Shown: positions 6,116 through 18,026 of the stretch, one piece after another
How the letters are laid out: each line of letters begins with the position of its first letter
Numbering within the stretch: position 1 is the first letter of the stretch
From: a virus
DNA length: 18,230 nucleotides
Direction: 5' to 3' (one strand)
UHGV virus genome: UHGV-1777858
Notes under the pieces: model-generated
Seen by the model: the letters and a program-made list of their open reading frames with translations, nothing else
The model's database searches: none
What the model was told of the DNA's origin: nothing
Program-made: the position numbers and the translations under genes

Positions 6116-7522
6116 ATGGCTGATATATCAACACCCAACCTCGACTATAACGATATGCTGGAGGCGTGGGATATTAACGACGCACTGATGGGCGGTACGC
6201 TTGAAATGCGCAGGCAGGGGGAAAATTATCTCCCAAAATGGCCTAACGAAGATGAAGACGCTTATAAAAAACGCCTGTCTGCGGCTACGCTACTTCCTGT
6301 GTATGAAGAAAGCATCAAGCAAAATATTGGGCGCATATTTGCAGAGCCGACAGTATTGAGTGAGGAAACGCCGGCAAAAATCAGGGAATATGCAGAAAAT
6401 ATCGACATGGAGGGAAGCCGACTGGATGTGTGGGCGCAGCAATTTTTCAGCCTCGCATTTCAGTATGGTGTGGCACATGCGCTGGTGGACTATCCACGAA
6501 CGGATATGAAAGAGATTCGGACAAAAGCCGATGAAAACGCGGCCGGTAGTCGTCCGTACGTTACGATGCTGAATCCACGCCAGGTTATTGGATGGAAATC
6601 GAAAGTTGAAAAAGGGAAAGTTGTTCTCACTGATTTGCGTATAAAAGAGGTCATCATTATTGATGGTGATGATTTCGGGCAGAAGAAGGTGGAGCAGATC
6701 CGCCATATTATGCCCCGTCGAGTTGAAATTTATCGACGTAGCGAAGGCACTAATGGCGAATCTGTCTGGACGCTTCATGAGTCATGGAATACCAGCCGTG
6801 ATGATATTCCTCTGGTAACACTGTACACGAAGAAAACAGGATTTATGCGTGGTACACCGCCATTGCTTAATCTTGGCTTGCTGAATATCAAGCACTGGCA
6901 AAGCCAGAGCGAGCAGGACAATATTCTTCATGTTGCCCGCGTTCCATTGCTGGTGGCCTACGGGCTGGACAGGAATGAAGAACTGACGGTTGGTGCATCC
7001 ACCGCTACGATTTTTGAGGACAGAACAAAAAATGGCCTCGAATATGTTGAACATAGTGGCGCAGCGATAGAATCTGGCGAAACATCACTTGAGAAGCTGG
7101 AAAATCAGATGCGTCATGCCGGCGCTAAACTTCTGCGTGCTGAAAATACATCCACCAAATCTGTTGATCAGACTAATGAAGAGCGAATGCAGGAAAACTC
7201 GCCGCTTTATACAATGGCGAACTCCCTCGAAGATGCCCTCGATAATATTCTCCAGATAATGGCGGAATGGATCGGAGAGAGTTGCGGTGGCAATGTGGAT
7301 GTGCGCACTGAACTGGATGTATCTGCCCAGGTGTTTGACTCATCCTCCGCGCTGGCTGTTCAGTCATTGCGTCAGGGCGGTGATATACGTCAGATTGATG
7401 CGATTCGGGTGTTGCAGGCGTTGAAATTTATCGATCAGGATTCCCGTCCAGAGGAAGTGATCGATGAATTAAAAAATCAGAGTGTAATGCTGATGGAAAT
7501 CAATGATGCAAACCGTGAATGA
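6116..7522 (+). CDS. Phage portal protein (probable)
   Basis: 468-aa ORF immediately following terL (stop TAA 6111-6113, ATG 6116), with an acidic C-terminus. Position and size fit a portal; family assignment is from memory of similar prophage proteins and is not verified. Confidence 0.7.
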   Translation: MADISTPNLDYNDMLEAWDINDALMGGTLEMRRQGENYLPKWPNEDEDAYKKRLSAATLLPVYEESIKQNIGRIFAEPTVLSEETPAKIREYAENIDMEGSRLDVWAQQFFSLAFQYGVAHALVDYPRTDMKEIRTKADENAAGSRPYVTMLNPRQVIGWKSKVEKGKVVLTDLRIKEVIIIDGDDFGQKKVEQIRHIMPRRVEIYRRSEGTNGESVWTLHESWNTSRDDIPLVTLYTKKTGFMRGTPPLLNLGLLNIKHWQSQSEQDNILHVARVPLLVAYGLDRNEELTVGASTATIFEDRTKNGLEYVEHSGAAIESGETSLEKLENQMRHAGAKLLRAENTSTKSVDQTNEERMQENSPLYTMANSLEDALDNILQIMAEWIGESCGGNVDVRTELDVSAQVFDSSSALAVQSLRQGGDIRQIDAIRVLQALKFIDQDSRPEEVIDELKNQSVMLMEINDANRE

Positions 7523-8618
7523 ACGGCTGCGTGATGAATCAATTGCTCATGCAGTCTGGATATCCCGCTATAGCACTGGCGTGGCTGCCAGAATGGTGAA
7601 AATACTGAATGACAGCGATGCGGAACTTACTGCTCGCCTGCTGATAGCACTGGACAGCCTCGATCCAGGTAGTTTTACCGTTAAGCGCCTGGAGTCACTT
7701 CTGGCGAGCGTCAGAGAGGTTAACCGCACTGCTATTAACAGCATGTTTACCAGTCTCTCCGGAGAGCTGAACGAGCTGGCAATTTATGAGGCTGGTTATC
7801 AGTTAAGTCTGTTTGATTCTATGCTACCTGATTTTGTTGCTGATGTTCACCCTCTGGTTGGTATCTCTCCTGATGCACTTTATGCCGCTGCAATGGCGCG
7901 ACCATTTCAGGGACGACTGCTCAGTGAGTGGGCCTCAGATCTTGAGGCGGATCGGCTCAGACGCATAACAAATACAGTGCGTCAGGGTTTTTTGCTGGGG
8001 GATACCAATGAGCAGATCGCAAGAAAAATTCGGGGACATGTCAGTAAGGGATTTCAGGATGGTGCATTGCAGATGAGCCGGGCTAATGCGGCCAGCATTG
8101 CAAAAACAGCGGTTGGACATCTTGCTGCTACTGCCCGTGAGAGTTTTGCCAGCGCGAATAATGATTTGATTAAGGGTAAGCAATGGTTATCAACGCTTGA
8201 TAATCGTACTACGCCACAATGTCGAATCAGGGATCGCCTCAAATATACGCTGAATAATAAACCTGTAGGTCACAGCGTGCCTTATTTGCAGGGGCCGGGA
8301 AAAATTCATTTCTGCTGCCGCTCAACGGAAACGTTCATTCTGAAATCAGCGAAGGAACTGGGTATTGATGTTCGCGATATTTCCCCGGCTGAGCGGGCCA
8401 GCATGGATGGCGTGGTGGCCGGAGATACAACCTACAGGGAATGGTTTTTGCGTCAGCCTTACACCAGACAAAAACAGATTGTGGGGGAAACCCGAGCAAA
8501 GCTGATTCGGGATGGTGGTATGTCGCCAGATGAATTTTACACCGATAAAGGCGAATGGCTGACGCTGAAGCAGCTCCGTGAGCGTGATGCACAGGTATTC
8601 AGAAAAGCAGGGATTTAA
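7503..8618 (+). CDS. Head morphogenesis protein (Mu F / SPP1 gp7-like minor head protein)
   Basis: 371 aa, overlaps the portal 3' end and lies between portal and scaffold. Sequence character (e.g. ...GISPDALYAAAMARPFQGRLLSEWASDLE...) is consistent with the Phage_Mu_F family, not verified. Confidence 0.75.
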   Translation: MMQTVNERLRDESIAHAVWISRYSTGVAARMVKILNDSDAELTARLLIALDSLDPGSFTVKRLESLLASVREVNRTAINSMFTSLSGELNELAIYEAGYQLSLFDSMLPDFVADVHPLVGISPDALYAAAMARPFQGRLLSEWASDLEADRLRRITNTVRQGFLLGDTNEQIARKIRGHVSKGFQDGALQMSRANAASIAKTAVGHLAATARESFASANNDLIKGKQWLSTLDNRTTPQCRIRDRLKYTLNNKPVGHSVPYLQGPGKIHFCCRSTETFILKSAKELGIDVRDISPAERASMDGVVAGDTTYREWFLRQPYTRQKQIVGETRAKLIRDGGMSPDEFYTDKGEWLTLKQLRERDAQVFRKAGI

Positions 8619-8637
8619 ATAAATCATTTATTACAAC

Positions 8638-8665
8638 AGGCTACCTTCGGGTGGCCTTTTTTATT
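8638..8665 (+). terminator. Rho-independent terminator (UUCG tetraloop) after the head morphogenesis gene
   Basis: AGGCTACC-TTCG-GGTGGCCT (8-bp stem with one G-U pair) followed by TTTTTTATT. Confidence 0.6.
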
Positions 8666-8722
8666 GCTGCGATCCGGATGGTGAGCAGCGTAACTGTCGG
8701 AAGACTTAAACCAGGTACTAAT

Positions 8723-8860
8723 ATGAAACTGAAAACGGTCGAGATTAACGGAAAACAATACGCAGAAATTGATACTGCTGGCCTGCCAGTTTATGTGCAC
8801 GACGATGGTAAAGAAATTGGCTTCGATGCACCGCTGGCGACAAAAAAAATTACAGAATAG
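8723..8860 (+). CDS. Scaffold-like protein, N-terminal fragment (frame ends just after an A8 tract)
   Basis: MKLKTVEINGKQYAEIDTAGLPVYVHDDGKEIGFDAPLATKKITE then stop. The reading frame continues in the +1 frame across the A8 run at 8842-8849 into the next ORF. Confidence 0.55.
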   Translation: MKLKTVEINGKQYAEIDTAGLPVYVHDDGKEIGFDAPLATKKITE

Positions 8861-9482
8861 CGAGGCAAAAAATCATCGCCTGGCTAAAGAAGCTGCAGAG
8901 GAAAAACTGGCTAAGTTTGCCGCTATCGAAGACCCGAAGAAGGCGATCGAGGCACTGGAAATGCTGTCAAAAATCGACCAGAAAAAGCTGCTCGATGCGG
9001 GACAGGTTGACCAGGTTAAGGCAGAAATTACGAAAAATTTTCAGCAGCAATTAGATGAAGAAAAGCAACGCTCTCAGATGCTGGAGAAGCAGCTTTACGA
9101 TTCTATGATTGGCGGTAGTTTTGCGGGTTCAAAATATATTGCCGATAAAATTGCGATCCCGGCAGATTTATTACAATCACGCTTCGGGCAGGCATTCAAA
9201 GTGGAAGAAGGGAGGATCGTTGCTTATGACGCTTCCGGCAACAAAATTTATTCCCGCGCGAAGCCTGGCGAACTGGCGCAGTTTGATGAGGCGCTGGAGT
9301 TCCTTGTCGAAAATTACCCTCAGAAAGACTACATCCTGAAAGCCAGTGGCAACAATGGCGGCGGCTCCCGTCCGACACAGCATGATATTGGTCAGAAAAC
9401 GATGAAACGCTCTGCTTTTGATGCACTGGATGTTGCAGGTAAGCAAAACGCATTGAAAGACGGTATCACAATCGTTGATTAA
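8826..9482 (+). CDS. Scaffold-like protein, main portion (coiled-coil-rich); likely the same gene as 8723-8860, disrupted by a frameshift
   Basis: Frame open from 8769. The product is rich in charged, helix-forming residues (AKEAAEEKLAKFAAIEDPKKAIEALEML...QQQLDEEKQRSQMLEKQLYD) and lies between the head morphogenesis and major capsid genes, the usual scaffold position. No convincing RBS for an independent start. Confidence 0.6.
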   Translation: MHRWRQKKLQNSEAKNHRLAKEAAEEKLAKFAAIEDPKKAIEALEMLSKIDQKKLLDAGQVDQVKAEITKNFQQQLDEEKQRSQMLEKQLYDSMIGGSFAGSKYIADKIAIPADLLQSRFGQAFKVEEGRIVAYDASGNKIYSRAKPGELAQFDEALEFLVENYPQKDYILKASGNNGGGSRPTQHDIGQKTMKRSAFDALDVAGKQNALKDGITIVD

Positions 9483-9580
9483 CACATTTGTCAGCTTCCG
9501 GATGGGAGCTGGTGTCAGGGCTGGATAGCTCATTACTCCATCTATTCACAATTACGCAAATTTTTAAGGAATATTTAATT

Positions 9581-10720
9581 ATGGCTGGAAATACCCTGAC
9601 CGGGTTGATCCCGACTATTTATACCGCCCTGGATGTTGTATCCCGTGAGCAGGTAGGTTTTATCCCTGCGGTAGCAAAAAACGCAAAAGCTGACGCCGCA
9701 GCAAAAGATCAGACGGTAACCGCGCCAGTTGCGCCTGAGGCGAAAACCGAAGATATCGTACCGGGGCCGTCAGCTCCGAATACCGGTGATCAAAATATTG
9801 GCACTGTTGATGTAAAAATTACTAAATCCAAAATGGCACCTGTTAAATGGAATGGTGAAGAACAACTGGCTCTTGGTCCTTCAGGGACTTACAACACCAT
9901 TCTGGCTGATCAGTTCAAGCAGGCTTTTCGCGCCCTTGCAAACGAGGTTGAGGCTGATCTTGGTGCGTTGTATTTCGGTGCTTCCCGCGCCGTGGGAACC
10001 GCAGGGACAACGCCGTTTGGTGTTAAAGATGATCTTTCTGATGCTGCTCTGGCTCGTCAGGTTCTGGAGGATAACGGCGCACCGACAACCGATCTGCAGA
10101 TGGTGCTTGGCTCCACTGCCATTGCTAATTTGCGCGGAAAACAGTCTGTATTGTTTAAAGTGAATGAATCCGGCACTGAACAGCTACTGCGTGAGGGCGT
10201 GTTGGGGCGTCTGGAGGGATTCAATATTCACAGTTCGGCAGGTGTGAAACGAGCGCCAAAGGTTGCTGCAACTGGTTATCTCGTGAATGGAGAGAAAAAA
10301 GAAGGCGATGTTCTTATTTCCATTGATACTGGTTCGGGGAGTATTTCTGCAGGTCAGATTGTTACGTTCGCTGGTGATCCGAATCAGTATGTTGTGGCAG
10401 CAGCGACCAGCAATCTGATTACTCTTGCAGCGCCCGGACTGCGTCAGGATCTGGCCGATGATACTGCCATCACAGTTGTTGGGGCCTTTACTGCAAATAT
10501 GGCGTTTGATCGCAACGCGTTTCTGCTGGCATCCCGTACTCCGGCAATGCCGGAAGGTGGCGATAATGCTGATGATGTAATGAATGTTACGGACCCGATT
10601 TCAGGGATTACGTTCCAGATTGCACTGTATCGTCAGTATCGCCAGGTGCGCTATGAAGTTGGACTGGCATGGGGTGTTTCATCAGTGAAGCCGGCACATG
10701 GTTGTCTGATTCTTGGTTAA
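9581..10720 (+). CDS. Major capsid protein (probable)
   Basis: 379 aa from ATG 9581 (SD AAGGA at 9566-9570; the ORF track starts at TTG 9488). Lies after the scaffold gene and is followed by a strong terminator, consistent with a highly expressed coat gene. Family not verified. Confidence 0.7.
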   Translation: MAGNTLTGLIPTIYTALDVVSREQVGFIPAVAKNAKADAAAKDQTVTAPVAPEAKTEDIVPGPSAPNTGDQNIGTVDVKITKSKMAPVKWNGEEQLALGPSGTYNTILADQFKQAFRALANEVEADLGALYFGASRAVGTAGTTPFGVKDDLSDAALARQVLEDNGAPTTDLQMVLGSTAIANLRGKQSVLFKVNESGTEQLLREGVLGRLEGFNIHSSAGVKRAPKVAATGYLVNGEKKEGDVLISIDTGSGSISAGQIVTFAGDPNQYVVAAATSNLITLAAPGLRQDLADDTAITVVGAFTANMAFDRNAFLLASRTPAMPEGGDNADDVMNVTDPISGITFQIALYRQYRQVRYEVGLAWGVSSVKPAHGCLILG

Positions 10721-12517: not shown

Positions 12518-13480
12518 GTGAGTTCAGGTGCAAAGGTTATCTCGGCATTTATCCGGGAGACAGTTGCAGGCACTACGCCAGCAAGTGGTGACTGGAGTTT
12601 ATTAAAACGCACAAGCTGGGGAGTAAAACCCACCCAGAATAAAGGCGAAAATAATGAGATTGGTGGCTCCCGGATGGCTCAGGGGGCGACGCCTGGCACT
12701 GTGGATGTCGGCGGTGATGTTGGTACCAAATTTCGCTGGGGTCAACATGATGATTTTCTTGCATCCTGTTTCGGCGCGGAATGGTCAGGCGATTCTCTGA
12801 CAATGGGGAATGAGCGAATAACATTTTCTCTGGCGACCTATGCGTCCGATGTCGGAATTGCCTCTGTCGTCAGAGGAGCGCAGGTTGGCTCATGGAAAAT
12901 GCAGATCCCTAACGACGGCGATATTACAGCGACCGTAACCTTTGCCGGGCTGGGCTGGGAAACAAAGGCCGATGATACGAATTTTATCAAAGGCAAACCT
13001 GTGGATAGTGCAGGAAAGTTACGCTATTCGTTTAAGGAGGTTTCAGCAGTAAGCCTGAATGGTGTTGCCGGAGGTAACGGTTTTTGTATCGACAGTTTTG
13101 ATATTCAGTTCGATAACAAACTCCAGACACAGCGTTGTATCGGGACTGGCTCGCCTTATGCAGGAGCAAATATTCCGACTACTTTTACACCGTCCGGTAC
13201 GGTGACGCTTTCATGGTCTAAAGCCGCGTGGGAAATCTGGAGTAAAACACTGACTGGAGAAACAGTTCCGTTCAGCTTCACGCTTTCGAATGGAGAGGGG
13301 GCATACACTTTCAGTTTCCCGAAGGTTCAGGTGTCAGGTGAATGGCCTGATGGGGGTAATACTGACATTATCCAGGTTCAATTGAGCATTACCGCAGCAG
13401 ATGAAGCACCTACGATAACCAGAAAAAAATGCTCCCCGACTGCCGTGATCGCAAAAGCCAGTGCTGATGCGATTAGTTGA
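12518..13480 (+). CDS. Major tail (tube) protein, possibly with a C-terminal Ig-like extension
   Basis: 320 aa from GTG 12518 with a perfect SD (AGGAGG). Gly/Thr/Ser-rich composition typical of tail tube proteins; precedes the G/GT chaperone and tape measure genes. Confidence 0.7.
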   Translation: MSSGAKVISAFIRETVAGTTPASGDWSLLKRTSWGVKPTQNKGENNEIGGSRMAQGATPGTVDVGGDVGTKFRWGQHDDFLASCFGAEWSGDSLTMGNERITFSLATYASDVGIASVVRGAQVGSWKMQIPNDGDITATVTFAGLGWETKADDTNFIKGKPVDSAGKLRYSFKEVSAVSLNGVAGGNGFCIDSFDIQFDNKLQTQRCIGTGSPYAGANIPTTFTPSGTVTLSWSKAAWEIWSKTLTGETVPFSFTLSNGEGAYTFSFPKVQVSGEWPDGGNTDIIQVQLSITAADEAPTITRKKCSPTAVIAKASADAIS

Positions 13481-13490
13481 TTTTCCGTTA

Positions 13491-13517
13491 TTCCCCCTGT
13501 GGTACTGCACTACAGGG
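13491..13517 (+). other. Stem-loop without U-tract between major tail and chaperone genes
   Basis: CCCCCTGT (13491-13498) and ACAGGGGG (13510-13517) form an 8-bp GC-rich stem with an 11-nt loop. The 3' arm overlaps the SD-like AGGGGG of the downstream gene. Confidence 0.35.
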
Positions 13518-13528
13518 GGACGCATTGA

Positions 13529-13990
13529 ATGAGGTTATGGATGTTTATTCTTAATCAGAAAATTATCATCGGTGGAGAACGCTGGTTTACGCCAATGAAG
13601 GACTTAAAACCTGTAGACGGGTTAAAACTGTTGGTGGCAAGCAGCGATAACGATCAGTATCGCTCCCGTAATGCATTAATCCGTCGTCACATTGAGAAAA
13701 TGGATGCCAGTTTGCACGTCGGAACGAAGGAGTTTGATATTTCAAAGGTTTCCGAGGTAGATTCTGTTGATGATTTACTCATTGATAATGCTGCTCGTTA
13801 TCTGCTGAAAGACTGGAAAGGGGTTGGTGAACTGGTTAATGGTGCTGAGGTTGCACTGGAATATACGCCAGAACGAGGGATCGCGCTGCTTAAGCAGAAT
13901 CCAGAGTTGTACTGGCAGATCCTTGCAGAAGCAGCCAGCATCGCCCAGGGTAAAGAGCAGCAGAAGCAGGATACGATAAAAAAGCCATAG
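13529..13990 (+). CDS. Tail assembly chaperone (lambda gpG-like)
   Basis: 153-aa ORF (alternative start ATG 13595, MKDLKPVDG...) directly upstream of the tape measure gene. Its last codons contain the slippery heptamer A_AAA_AAG, and the -1 frame is open for a further ~105 codons. Confidence 0.7.
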   Translation: MRLWMFILNQKIIIGGERWFTPMKDLKPVDGLKLLVASSDNDQYRSRNALIRRHIEKMDASLHVGTKEFDISKVSEVDSVDDLLIDNAARYLLKDWKGVGELVNGAEVALEYTPERGIALLKQNPELYWQILAEAASIAQGKEQQKQDTIKKP

Positions 13991-14298
13991 CCGCCCAGCG
14001 GTGGTTATCGGAGTTCGGGGGAGAAAGGGGGGAAAAGGCAAGATGGAAGCGAGAAAAACTCAGGTTGCCACCGATACCGGAACCAGAAATAGACCCGGTG
14101 CTTAAGGAATTGTTGTACGCCTATTCGGTAATATCCCGTGCCCGACGTTATGCTGGAATGACCGGGGTGCCTTTGCCTTTATCTCTGACAGAGATAAATG
14201 AATATTTAGCCACTCATCCGGTATTGATTGAGCGCGATGAGTTTGAAGCAGTGATCTTTGCACTGGATGACCAGTATTTTCAGGATCAGTGTGTGTAG
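13529..14298 (+). CDS. Tail assembly chaperone G-T fusion product (via -1 frameshift at 13978-13984)
   Basis: The -1 frame is open from the slippery site to 14298. The G/GT frameshift directly upstream of the tape measure gene is conserved among long-tailed phages. Confidence 0.55.
13978..13984 (+). promoter_or_regulatory. Programmed -1 ribosomal frameshift site (slippery heptamer A_AAA_AAG) for a G-T fusion
   Basis: G-frame codons are ATA AAA AAG CCA TAG. After a -1 slip the frame reads GCC ATA GCC GCC CAG ... and stays open to TAG at 14296-14298 (the ORF track shows this frame as 14065-14298). Confidence 0.6.
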
Positions 14299-14421
14299 TT
14301 GTTAATTACGTACACTCTGTTACAGAGATGTGATGGTGTCTTTAATTAAATCGATGATGCTCCTGGAGAAAAGCATTGCGTGGCCTCGTAATCGCTATAT
14401 CTACTATTATGTCGCCTGAAA

Positions 14422-14445
14422 CCCACTTCGGTGGGCTTTTTGTTG
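14422..14445 (+). terminator. Terminator-like UUCG-tetraloop hairpin in the G/T to tape-measure intergenic region
   Basis: CCCAC-TTCG-GTGGG followed by CTTTTTGTTG. The stem is short (5 bp), so it may act as a partial terminator or attenuator. Confidence 0.4.
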
Positions 14446-14461
14446 TCTGGAGTTTTAATAA

Positions 14462-16960
14462 ATGGCAGAGCAAACCTCGCGTCTCGCAATAATTATTGAT
14501 AGCACTGGAGCAAAAAATAATGCTGACAATCTGACCTCCTCATTAGTCAAAATGACGCAGGCCGGGGAAACTGCTGCAAATAGCACAGGGAAAGTGACTA
14601 AGGCAACAGAAGATGAGAAGAACGCGCTCGCAAAATTAAAAGCAGCTATTGATCCAGTTGGTGCCGCAATTGATACTGTCGGTCGACGCTATTCTGAATT
14701 AAAGAAATTTTTCGATAAAGGGCTTATTGATAAAGAAGAATATGAATTTCTTGTCCGTAAACTTAATGAAACCACAGAGGAATTGAGCGGGGTTGCGCAA
14801 GCGCAGAGAGAAGCCGAGAAGGCCGGAAAACTTGCTGCCGCCCAGCAGGAAGCGCAGGCTCAGGCCTTTCAAAGAATGCTGGACAAGATCGACCCTCTGG
14901 CTGCGGCGCTAAGAAATCTTGAACAACAGCAGGATGAACTTAATGCTGCGTTTGCATCCGGGAAAATAAATGGTTCTCAGTTTGAGAATTATAGCCGAAA
15001 AATACAGGAAACACGGCGAGAGCTTACCGGAGAGGCTCAGGCAGAGCGAGAAGCAGCAAAAGCGCATGATGAACAGGTTGCTGCTTTGCAACGTCTGATT
15101 GCTCAACTTGACCCTGTCGGAACTGCTTTTAATCGTCTGGTAGAACAACAGAAACAGCTCAATGAAGCAAAAGCTAAGGGGATGCTCTCTCCTGAAATGT
15201 ATGAGGAACTTTCTGGAAAACTTCGTGCTATGCGGAGTGAGCTTGAGGTTACTCAATCTCAATTAAGCAAAACCGGAATGTCGGCAAAACAAACGGCTTT
15301 TGCTATGCGCATGTTGCCTGCACAAATGACGGATATTGTTGTTGGGTTGTCCACTGGTCAGTCGCCTTTTATGGTGTTAATGCAGCAGGGCGGCCAGCTA
15401 AAAGATATGTTCGGTGGGATTGGCCCGGCGATCAAAGGTGTTGGTTCTTATGTGCTGGGATTAATTAATCCTTTTACCCTGGCCGCAGCAGCCGTTGGCG
15501 TCTTAGGGCTGGCTTACTATAAAGGCTCTCAGGAGCAGGACGAATTTAATAAATCTCTTATTCTTACCGGAAATCAGTTGGGGACAACCAGCGGGCAATT
15601 GGCCGATATAGCTCAACGTGCCGGGAATGCGGCTGATTCGACAACTGGCGCTGCGGCGGCAGTATTAAACCAGCTTGTGCGTTCGGGAAAGGTAGCGAGC
15701 AGTTCGCTGGAGCAAGTGACGACAGCGATAGTAAAAACGAGCGAAGTAACAGGAATATCAACCGAACAACTGGTTAATGACTTCAATGAAATTGCAAAGG
15801 ATCCTGTCAGTGCCATATCAAAACTTAATGATCAGTACCATTTTCTGACAATTGCGACTTATAACCAGATTAAGGCGCTACAGGATGAAGGGAACCAGCA
15901 GGAGGCCGCCCGCATTGCGACAGAAGCATACTCATCCTCAATGATCCAGCGCACCAACCAGATTAAAGAAAATCTTGGTTATCTTGAGACTGCATGGAAA
16001 GCTGTCGCAGACTCCGCAAAATGGGCATGGGATTCCATGCTGGACATTGGCCGTGAGGCCTCCCTTGATCAAAAAATCTCAGATGTTCTCCGTCAAATTG
16101 ATGAAATAGAAAAAAATACCCGACCCGGAGTTTTCGGGTTAGGTGGCATTGGAGATGGCGGAGCTCAAAATAAAAGGCTGGCACGATTAAAGCAGCAATT
16201 GGGCGTACTTCAAGCAGAAAAAATTGCTCAGGACGTCCTAAATTCATCAATAAACGATTACAACAAGCGACAACAGGAAGGAATTGAACTCAGACAGAGA
16301 GCAGATGCCTTTTCAAAACAATATCAGACCCGGGAGCAGCAGAGAGCTAGTGAACTTGCAAAACTGGAAAAGCTAAAGAGTCAGTATTCAAAGGAAGAAT
16401 ATAATAATTTTATCGCTCAAATAAATGAGCGTTATAAAGATCCAAAGCAACCAAAGGCGAAAGGTTATTCGGATGATGCTGCCCAACGAATGATTGATCA
16501 TCTGAATCAACAGAATGCGTTACTAAGTTCACAAACTGAATTAACCGTTAAATTAAGTTCCTCTGAACAGGAACTGGTTAAGTGGCGTCAGCAGATTGCC
16601 GACCTGGAGTCACGACCGTCATCGAAATTAACCCAGGATCAGAAATCGCTTCTCTTACACCGGGAAGAAATAACCGCGTTGATGGAGAAAAATGTTGCGA
16701 TTGAAAAAAATAACAGGCTAATCAAGGAATCCGCCGAAATAGCTGCATGGCGTGATTTATTGCAGGCTTCGATTGATAATCGTCAACAGGGGTATGATAT
16801 TCAGATTGCTGGTTATGGGGTTGGCGATAAAAATCAGCAACGCCAGCAGGAATTACTGCGGATTGAACGTGAATATAACAATCAGCGTCTGCAACTTGAA
16901 CGTGACTATGCAGATAAATCCCGTGGGATGTCAAATCATGTTTTTCAGGAGAAAATGTAG
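14462..16960 (+). CDS. Tail tape measure protein, N-terminal 832 codons (ends at an in-frame TAG)
   Basis: Long alpha-helical, coiled-coil-rich ORF with three ~75-aa tandem repeats near the N-terminus and a hydrophobic segment ([58 protein letters not shown]). Sits after G/GT. The same frame continues open after TAG 16958-16960. Confidence 0.85.
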
Positions 16961-17695
16961 GCTCTGAATGATGCTCTGGAACGAGAAAAAGAAATTGTCA
17001 GACAGAAAAACGAGCAGCTCGATATTCAGGCAGGAGACTGGGTTAGTGGTGCCTCCCAGGGATTCAATAACTGGCTGGATGACACTAAGGATATCAGTGA
17101 GCAGATAAAATCAACCACGACTCAGATGTTTGATGGAATGACCGATGCGCTGGGTGATTTTGTCACGACAGGCAAGGCAAATTTTCGTTCTTTCGCTACT
17201 TCCGTGATTTCGGATCTTAGTCGAATAGCATTAAAGGCTTCAATTACTGGGATTTTCGACAGCATTAGTAACAGTTCTTCGGGGGGGATTTTAGGAACTA
17301 TCGGGAGTGCTATTAGTAAATTTATTCCGAATGCAAAGGGCGGTGTTTATGAGTCTCCGTCATTGAACACGTATTCGAACGGTATTTATGATTCCCCGCA
17401 ATTTTTTGCTTTTGCAAAAGGGGCTGGTGTTTTTGGTGAGGCTGGTCCGGAAGCCATTATGCCATTAACACGAACATCCGATGGTTCTCTTGGTGTCAGA
17501 GCTATTAATAGTAAAAGTGGTAATGGAGGCGGAGATATTACCTATGCCCCTGTATACCAAATCACTATTCAAAATGACGGCCAGAATGGAGAGATTGGCC
17601 CTCAGGCAATAAAAGCACTTATGGGGATGGTTGATCAGCGGGTGCAGGGCAATCTGTTAAATATGCGACGTGATGGGGGAATGTTAAGTGGCTAA
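16961..17695 (+). CDS. Tail tape measure protein, C-terminal segment (same frame, downstream of the in-frame TAG; first ATG at 17126)
   Basis: No stop codon between 16961 and 17695 in the tape measure frame, and no plausible start before ATG 17126. The sequence (…GKANFRSFATSVISDLSRIALKASITGIFDS…) resembles the C-terminal region of lambda-like tape measure proteins. Confidence 0.75.
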   Translation, partial: ALNDALEREKEIVRQKNEQLDIQAGDWVSGASQGFNNWLDDTKDISEQIKSTTTQMFDGMTDALGDFVTTGKANFRSFATSVISDLSRIALKASITGIFDSISNSSSGGILGTIGSAISKFIPNAKGGVYESPSLNTYSNGIYDSPQFFAFAKGAGVFGEAGPEAIMPLTRTSDGSLGVRAINSKSGNGGGDITYAPVYQITIQNDGQNGEIGPQAIKALMGMVDQRVQGNLLNMRRDGGMLSG

Positions 17696-18026
17696 TACGG
17701 AAGAATTTCACTGGTTACCAGAGGATGGAATGAAAACAGAAAATAAACCATCGATAAAAACTGTAAGATTTGGCGATGGTTATGAGCAACGAAGTCCAAA
17801 TGGACTTAATCATTCTCTGCGCGTTTTCACCTGTGATTTCAAAGTTGAGGCGAATGAACGTGATTCATTTGAAAAATTTTTAGCCCGGCATGAAGGCTAT
17901 AAATCTTTTTTTTGGCGCCCGCCTGGTATTAACAGAAAAATCAGAGTGGTGTGTCGAACGTGGTCAGCGACAGAACATATCACCTATACCGATTTTTCGT
18001 GTCAGTTTGACGAAGTGGTGATCTGA
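17688..18026 (+). CDS. Minor tail protein M (lambda gpM-like)
   Basis: 112 aa from GTG 17688 (SD GGGGGA). The conserved core VRFGDGYEQRSPNGLN ... SFFWRPP ... VVCRTWS ... FSCQFDEVV aligns with lambda M (VRFGDGYSQRAPAGLN ... SFLWTPP ... VTCAKWS ... FSAEFEQVV) as I recall it. Confidence 0.85.
   Translation: MANTEEFHWLPEDGMKTENKPSIKTVRFGDGYEQRSPNGLNHSLRVFTCDFKVEANERDSFEKFLARHEGYKSFFWRPPGINRKIRVVCRTWSATEHITYTDFSCQFDEVVI

Follow-up and report, generated by a model that had tools for sequence, protein, structure and literature searches.

An in-frame amber codon splits a tail tape measure gene in a Rac-type prophage of Escherichia coli

Structure of the interrupted tape measure gene

The stretch of DNA analysed here, hereafter the window, comprises 18,230 nucleotides (nt) of the virus genome UHGV-1777858, and the feature under study is the gene for a tail tape measure protein in a Rac-type prophage of Escherichia coli, split in two by one in-frame amber codon. 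On the + strand, an open reading frame (ORF) of 832 codons starting with ATG (14462..16957) encodes the N-terminal part of the protein, which is also the whole product if the stop is obeyed. It is followed by the TAG codon itself (16958..16960, in the context GAG AAA ATG TAG GCT CTG) and, in the same frame and on the same strand, by the C-terminal part (16961..17695), which runs without any stop for 244 codons up to its TAA. Translation of the frame from 14462 to 17695 gave 832 sense codons, then one stop and a further 244 sense codons before the final TAA at 17693-17695, in agreement with the list of ORFs, and a protein of 1077 residues would be produced if the TAG were decoded as sense. A first-pass annotation of this DNA had already described the interruption; its figure of 245 open codons after the TAG gives the extent of the open frame correctly and includes the TAA, the number of sense codons being 244. 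The earliest ATG, GTG or TTG in frame past the stop is an ATG at 17126 (codon 56 after the stop), so that 55 codons without a start codon follow the TAG, as had been noted. From this ATG begins a 189-codon ORF (17126..17695, + strand), which gene callers take for a 'tape measure' gene of its own in genomes with the TAG allele (carriers). Immediately downstream lies a gpM-like minor tail gene (17688..18026, + strand; GTG start; Pfam Phage_min_tail, E-value 1e-31), the start of which overlaps the TAA end of the tape measure frame by 8 nt; relatives annotate a gpM-like gene at the matching position.

Two Pfam families were found in the N-terminal piece, with membership judged against the curated Pfam cut-offs: TMP_2 at residues 267-471 (E-value 7e-82, 274.6 bits for a cut-off of 30.2) and TMP_4 at residues 671-748 (2e-24, 86 bits for a cut-off of 27). 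The C-terminal piece contains Tape_meas_lam_C at residues 25-99 (2e-27, 95.2 bits for a cut-off of 23). Comparison with solved structures placed both pieces on the same chain of phage lambda gpH (8iyk_H), residues 267-814 of the N-terminal piece matching gpH residues 54-610 (1e-51) and residues 21-244 of the C-terminal piece matching gpH residues 623-850 (5e-20), and the amber codon falls between gpH residues 610 and 623 on the alignment. Because the domains are complementary and the matches are colinear along one gpH chain, the two ORFs are consecutive parts of one gpH-type protein and belong to a single lambda gpH-type tape measure gene. The downstream open frame is not a product of chance, since the probability of a stop-free run of 244 codons is about 5e-7 at the base composition of the window and since this run holds a significant Pfam domain. 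The earlier description of the downstream segment as a tape measure C-terminus that overlaps the start of gpM is borne out by the Tape_meas_lam_C match and the 8-nt overlap.

The protein resembles lambda gpH (PDB 8IYK chain H) in having the TMP_2 and Tape_meas_lam_C families and in being colinear with it over gpH residues 54-850. The two differ in length, 853 amino acids in lambda against 1077 here, with about 210 more N-terminal residues in the present protein, and the amber codon interrupts only the latter. In lambda, gpH residues 818-842 form a three-helix coiled coil in the lumen of the tail tip, where they are held by the gpI trimer, and the C-terminus lies in the tip (PMC10721106). The counterpart of this segment (...IGPQAIKALMGMVDQRVQGNLLNMRRDGGMLSG) aligns downstream of the amber codon.

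The ATG at 17126 was examined as a possible start of an independent gene. No Shine-Dalgarno-like motif was recognised by eye in the sequence upstream of it, CCACGACTCAG, and the codon corresponds to residue 56 of the C-terminal fragment, within Tape_meas_lam_C (25-99), so that initiation there would drop the first 31 residues of the domain. Since the motif is lacking and the position is inside the domain, this ATG is not a credible independent start, and the ORF at 17126..17695 is most likely an annotation by-product rather than a gene. A scan for promoters and terminators around the stop found no terminator, and on the + strand it gave no relevant signal close to 17126. A strong Shine-Dalgarno-like AGGAG was observed 4 nt before another ATG, at 16955 (window positions 16946-16957), which is the last codon before the TAG; the mutant allele consequently contains a start-stop mini-ORF. 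The same AGGAG is kept in alleles that have CAG instead of TAG and could mark an internal start of a C-terminal fragment at this point.

Codon 833 in related prophages and the spread of the amber allele

The region was searched in 5426 complete E. coli genomes and was present in 718 of them. A 63-nt probe centred on codon 833 was then counted by exact matches in complete E. coli genomes: its CAG version was found in 312 and its TAG version in 32. All nine relatives inspected at the codon have CAG (473R12, Salmonella phage SPF_0923, LH85-a, 19A14, EcPF14, DX6, 442/2, 2018-02-2CC and 124611). The gene is a continuous coding sequence (CDS) of 3234 nt, for 1077 amino acids, in the prophage record 473R12, SPF_0923, LH85-a, 19A14 and EcPF14; a CDS of 1077 amino acids is annotated in seven of the nine, of which DX6, 442/2, 2018-02-2CC and 124611 are the four more diverged. 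Nucleotide identity of the CAG relatives ranges from about 96.4 to 99.9% over a 901-nt stretch around the codon, and SPF_0923 is 98.4% identical over the whole gene. As the relatives hold CAG, the direction of change was from CAG (Gln833) to TAG (Q833*), by a C-to-T transition at 16958. Deamination at a Dcm site was considered as the cause of this transition and rejected, the context being TGCAGGC and not CCWGG. The TAG carrier ES1 and the CAG strain 19A14 differ over 18.2 kb at position 16958 and at one single-nucleotide polymorphism (SNP) private to 19A14, and from this closeness of the nearest haplotypes we conclude that the stop is recent.

These observations agree with the proposal of the first-pass annotation that one gene of about 1077 codons had suffered a single nonsense mutation. 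It had named beforehand a comparison with Rac-like relatives as the way to find the sense codon, which is CAG (Gln) in an uninterrupted 1077-codon gene, and no homologue beyond the near-identical carriers showed a conserved stop followed by a separately initiated downstream gene.

An exact look-up of the 832-residue protein of the window gave no match because of an A42T change that is private to the window, and the product of the 189-codon ORF, a frame that gene callers list solely where the gene is split, was used in its place. In a large assembly collection, 1592 blocks are indexed for this product, and the codon was TAG in nine of the nine places read among its matches.

The TAG allele is already known, as public records annotate an internal-stop pseudogene in carriers. 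The Prokaryotic Genome Annotation Pipeline (PGAP) gives it the label 'phage tail tape measure protein, internal stop' in NZ_CP026723.1 (C4R22_RS00845) and NZ_CP133856.1 (RHO05_RS11305), the tape measure genes of which each show one difference from the window, the window-private SNP at 14585. The RefSeq/PGAP internal-stop records thus represent the same allele, from which the window departs by private changes located at 14585 in the gene and elsewhere in the prophage for the rest. GenBank prophage records and gene callers annotate two 'tape measure' CDSs for the TAG allele, and the two adjacent CDSs of some of these records are one broken gene.

Three of the carriers, 266917_2, 28Eco12 and NMBU_W05E18, are documented as sequence type 38 (ST38) (PMC6963479, PMC7311804), and one carrier record itself bears the name 'ST38'. 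All typed carriers (n = 3, from the papers) therefore belong to this type, and the distribution of the allele indicates a recent, clonally inherited mutation. The TAG at codon 833 may serve as a single-base marker of this Rac haplotype, whose typed carriers all belong to ST38, a clinically relevant clone of E. coli.

Five GenBank 'phage' records also contain the TAG. They were predicted by PHASTER in draft genomes of isolates that produce carbapenemases, and are not isolated phages (bioRxiv 10.1101/2022.06.29.498070). We considered these records as evidence for a viable phage with the TAG allele and rejected them as such, because they are predictions and because the accompanying electron micrographs were taken of mixed polylysogen lysates (bioRxiv 10.1101/2022.06.29.498070). 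The PHASTER score of 'intact' for these regions appears too generous for an element that bears the TAG.

Consequences of the amber codon and competing explanations

Taken together, the data lead us to propose, with a probability of roughly 0.94, that in a full-length Rac-type prophage one gpH-type tape measure gene was inactivated by the change of CAG (Gln833) to TAG in the course of ordinary prophage decay. Ribosomes would stop at the amber codon and release a product of 832 residues, devoid of the last 244 residues and hence of Tape_meas_lam_C and of the counterpart of the C-terminal tail-tip helix, while 16961..17695 would now be untranslated or nearly so. Such a truncated tape measure would probably fail to enter the tip complex from which polymerisation of the tail tube starts, and the prophage would then make heads without functional tails and be defective. 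Among the suppressor-sensitive 'sus' (amber) mutants of lambda described by Campbell, those in gene H are reportedly of this kind, H-defective lysates containing heads and no active tails. Heads without functional tails are expected here because the lambda H amber mutants behave in this way, and a defect of tail assembly should be a reasonable consequence. The lambda mutants and the present allele have in common that one amber codon interrupts the tape measure gene, with rescue expected in supE or supF hosts and tail-less particles otherwise; they differ in that the former were selected in the laboratory, whereas the latter is natural, has reached fixation in a prophage lineage carried by wild isolates, and was found in a checked host that is not supE. 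We infer that the stop is part of an ongoing, neutral decay of the prophage.

A sequencing or assembly error, with C as the true base at 16958 and an intact gene, has next to no probability. The window does have several changes unique to itself, and its source sequence is possibly of lower quality or unusual, but the T is common to 32 independent complete genomes obtained in different laboratories and on different platforms, occurs in the five draft-derived prophage records and in the nine further assemblies read, and is a single-base substitution outside a homopolymer, which is atypical of assembly artefacts. The number of independent assemblies with TAG rules out an artefact. It is extremely unlikely, too, that the tape measure is naturally split, the 832-residue product functioning together with a C-terminal protein initiated separately, at ATG 17126 or by reinitiation. 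The double annotation by gene callers and in GenBank prophage records is what such an arrangement would give, and the downstream frame is fully intact in carriers; this integrity is explained by the recency of the mutation, one SNP separating the haplotypes. Two genes are further contradicted by the 55 codons without a start, by an ATG at 17126 that has no Shine-Dalgarno motif and costs 31 residues of Tape_meas_lam_C, and by the relatives outside the clone, all of which have one continuous gene.

Functional readthrough or suppression, by which decoding of the amber codon as sense would be frequent enough for the prophage to go on making tails, possibly with two isoforms, is very unlikely in our estimation. 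In principle, a supE host, which inserts Gln, would restore exactly the ancestral residue, and a tail needs few copies of the tape measure. The possibility of rescue in an amber-suppressor host, raised in the first-pass annotation, is right in this sense, but the one carrier checked, 15.TR.026_OXA, has wild-type genes: its glnX-glnV operon was located by synteny, and the anticodons read were CTG in both glnV and glnX, i.e., tRNA-Gln(CUG). There are no tRNA genes in the window, and the tRNAs of the 49-kb prophage region, Thr(tgt) and Gly(tcc), i.e., Thr(UGU) and Gly(UCC), are not suppressors. The supE form of glnV was present in 155 complete genomes, and the 60 of these that were listed, a subset that cannot prove carriers absent among supE genomes, were all laboratory K-12-type strains. 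No sign of amber suppression in natural hosts was thus seen in the glnV and glnX of one carrier and in the tRNAs of the prophage.

Nor is the stop conserved across the diverged homologues, the TAG being confined to one near-identical haplotype. No accompanying change that could act as a readthrough signal was found between ES1 and 19A14 over their 18.2 kb; as the TAG haplotype and the nearest CAG haplotype are otherwise identical save one distant SNP, a co-evolved signal is not present. The allele does persist in a globally spread clone, which could be taken to favour readthrough, but hitch-hiking in a clonal host explains this persistence, and the tail genes of the carriers keep gaining insertion sequence (IS) insertions and breaks, contrary to what selection for tails would produce.

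Several points nevertheless weigh against inactivation by simple decay. ST38 is documented for three carriers only, and the suppressor check comprises glnV and glnX of one carrier together with the prophage region; amber suppressors are also formed by other loci such as tyrT, serU and leuX. Siphovirus particles were present in mitomycin-induced lysates of the carrier Eco_611 (bioRxiv 10.1101/2022.06.29.498070); their source is a polylysogen, and they are not assignable to the Rac-type prophage (bioRxiv 10.1101/2022.06.29.498070). Low-level natural readthrough of UAG, combined with the few copies of the tape measure per tail, may produce rare functional tails. If, in the ST38 hosts, such readthrough or an unrecognised suppressor were to supply a few full-length molecules, the element would be a leaky, low-output and naturally attenuated Rac phage and not one with a pseudogene, a scenario to which we give very little credence.

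With inactivation by decay as the preferred explanation, the locus offers a clean and datable case of how prophage decay begins, a process that is already well understood. It also allows the sequence of decay to be followed across descendants, from one point mutation to IS insertions, frameshifts and non-synonymous drift. Beyond the bookkeeping of annotation, its significance is small.

Prophage setting and further lesions

The tape measure gene sits between the G/GT pair and the tip genes, with the Phage_min_tail gene directly 3' and L, K, I and J annotated in carriers. Upstream, the tail assembly chaperone pair (13529..14298, + strand) consists of a YdaY/G-like frame and a -1 T frame and is intact: the G frame ends with the TAG at 13988-13990, the slippery sequence A AAA AAG lies at 13978-13984 and the -1 frame is open over 13954-14298. 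PF27119 Phage_YdaY was matched on the product homologous to the G-like frame, and PGAP annotates the T part merely as a separate small hypothetical protein. The position of the pair fixes the gene order as tube, G/GT, tape measure, M and L. The neighbourhood is like that of lambda, in which the tube gene, G/GT with its A AAA AAG site and the tape measure gene are followed by M, L, K, I and J.

In the carrier 266917_2 and in the CAG strain 19A14, the prophage lies beside ttcA and contains intR, xisR, recET, kilR, racR, ydaSTUV and trkG, the last of which is within the window at 268-1725. Carriers also hold ralR, lysis genes, and then a complete head and tail module that extends through gpJ, lom and the side-fibre genes. 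Over the full length of the window, its only differences from 266917_2 are six SNPs and two short deletions. By its gene content, the element can be identified as a full-length lambdoid prophage of the Rac type, roughly 47 kb long, and the term 'Rac-like' used in the first-pass annotation was well chosen, the ttcA-intR site and the genes recET, kilR, racR, ydaSTUV and trkG having all been found.

The Rac prophage of E. coli K-12 is similar in its integration site on the ttcA side and in having intR, xisR, ralR, recET, kilR, racR, ydaSTUV, trkG and ydaY, and the tape measure gene would be non-functional in both K-12 and the carriers. Most structural genes are missing from K-12 Rac, its tape measure gene being left as a remnant pseudogene. 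The two thus differ in the extent of their decay, since the carriers keep a complete head and tail module with one point mutation, whereas decay in K-12 went on to large deletions.

The amber codon at 833 is not the only stop found in this gene. When strain 2018-02-2CC (NZ_AP021896.1) was compared over the 901-nt stretch that matches window positions 16500-17400, it showed an independent nonsense codon (LES*PSS; relatives have Arg) 115 codons upstream, with CAG at codon 833. As this unrelated strain has a stop of its own, the same tape measure gene has been knocked out more than once.

Other lesions were observed in the window. A 5-bp deletion after 8855 (AGCTT in relatives) frameshifts a DUF6651 gene (8723-9482) located between the minor head protein and major capsid genes; codon 45 is followed by a stop at 8858-8860, and the remainder survives as an ORF at 8769..9482. 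All 743 complete E. coli genomes that hold the site lack the deletion, which is either a further inactivating lesion, private to the window, or a mistake in the source sequence. A 33-bp in-frame deletion (11 codons) at 2759/2760, with TGA/TGAA microhomology at its junction, affects a gene for a hypothetical protein of 310 amino acids upstream of the small terminase, and was seen in none of the relatives fetched. Five SNPs are private to the window (6282, 9841, 14585, 18086 and 18217), four of them non-synonymous: V56A in the portal, the A42T of the tape measure, and V21L and S64R in gpL. The synonymous one is in the major capsid gene. This pattern fits relaxed selection, the numbers being too small for a test.

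Lesions were observed in other carriers as well. In ECSC054 (AP024112.1), the tape measure gene has a DDE transposase gene (IS) inside its N-terminal portion (positions 6138-9835 of the fetched stretch), and three assemblies of TAG carriers have gpJ broken into two ORFs (fetched-stretch positions around 12950-16430). A Y1 (IS200-type) transposase gene adjoins the side-fibre gene in TAG carriers, and in strain 266917_2 ydaU is also frameshifted. These added lesions fit a relaxation of selection, the prophage no longer having to form particles. Finally, an anti-phage pair, iteA/iteS (an ATPase and an S8 peptidase), is annotated between the replication and late genes, upstream of the window (NZ_CP026723.1, 133263-136656), and such cargo could be a reason for the host to keep even a defective prophage.

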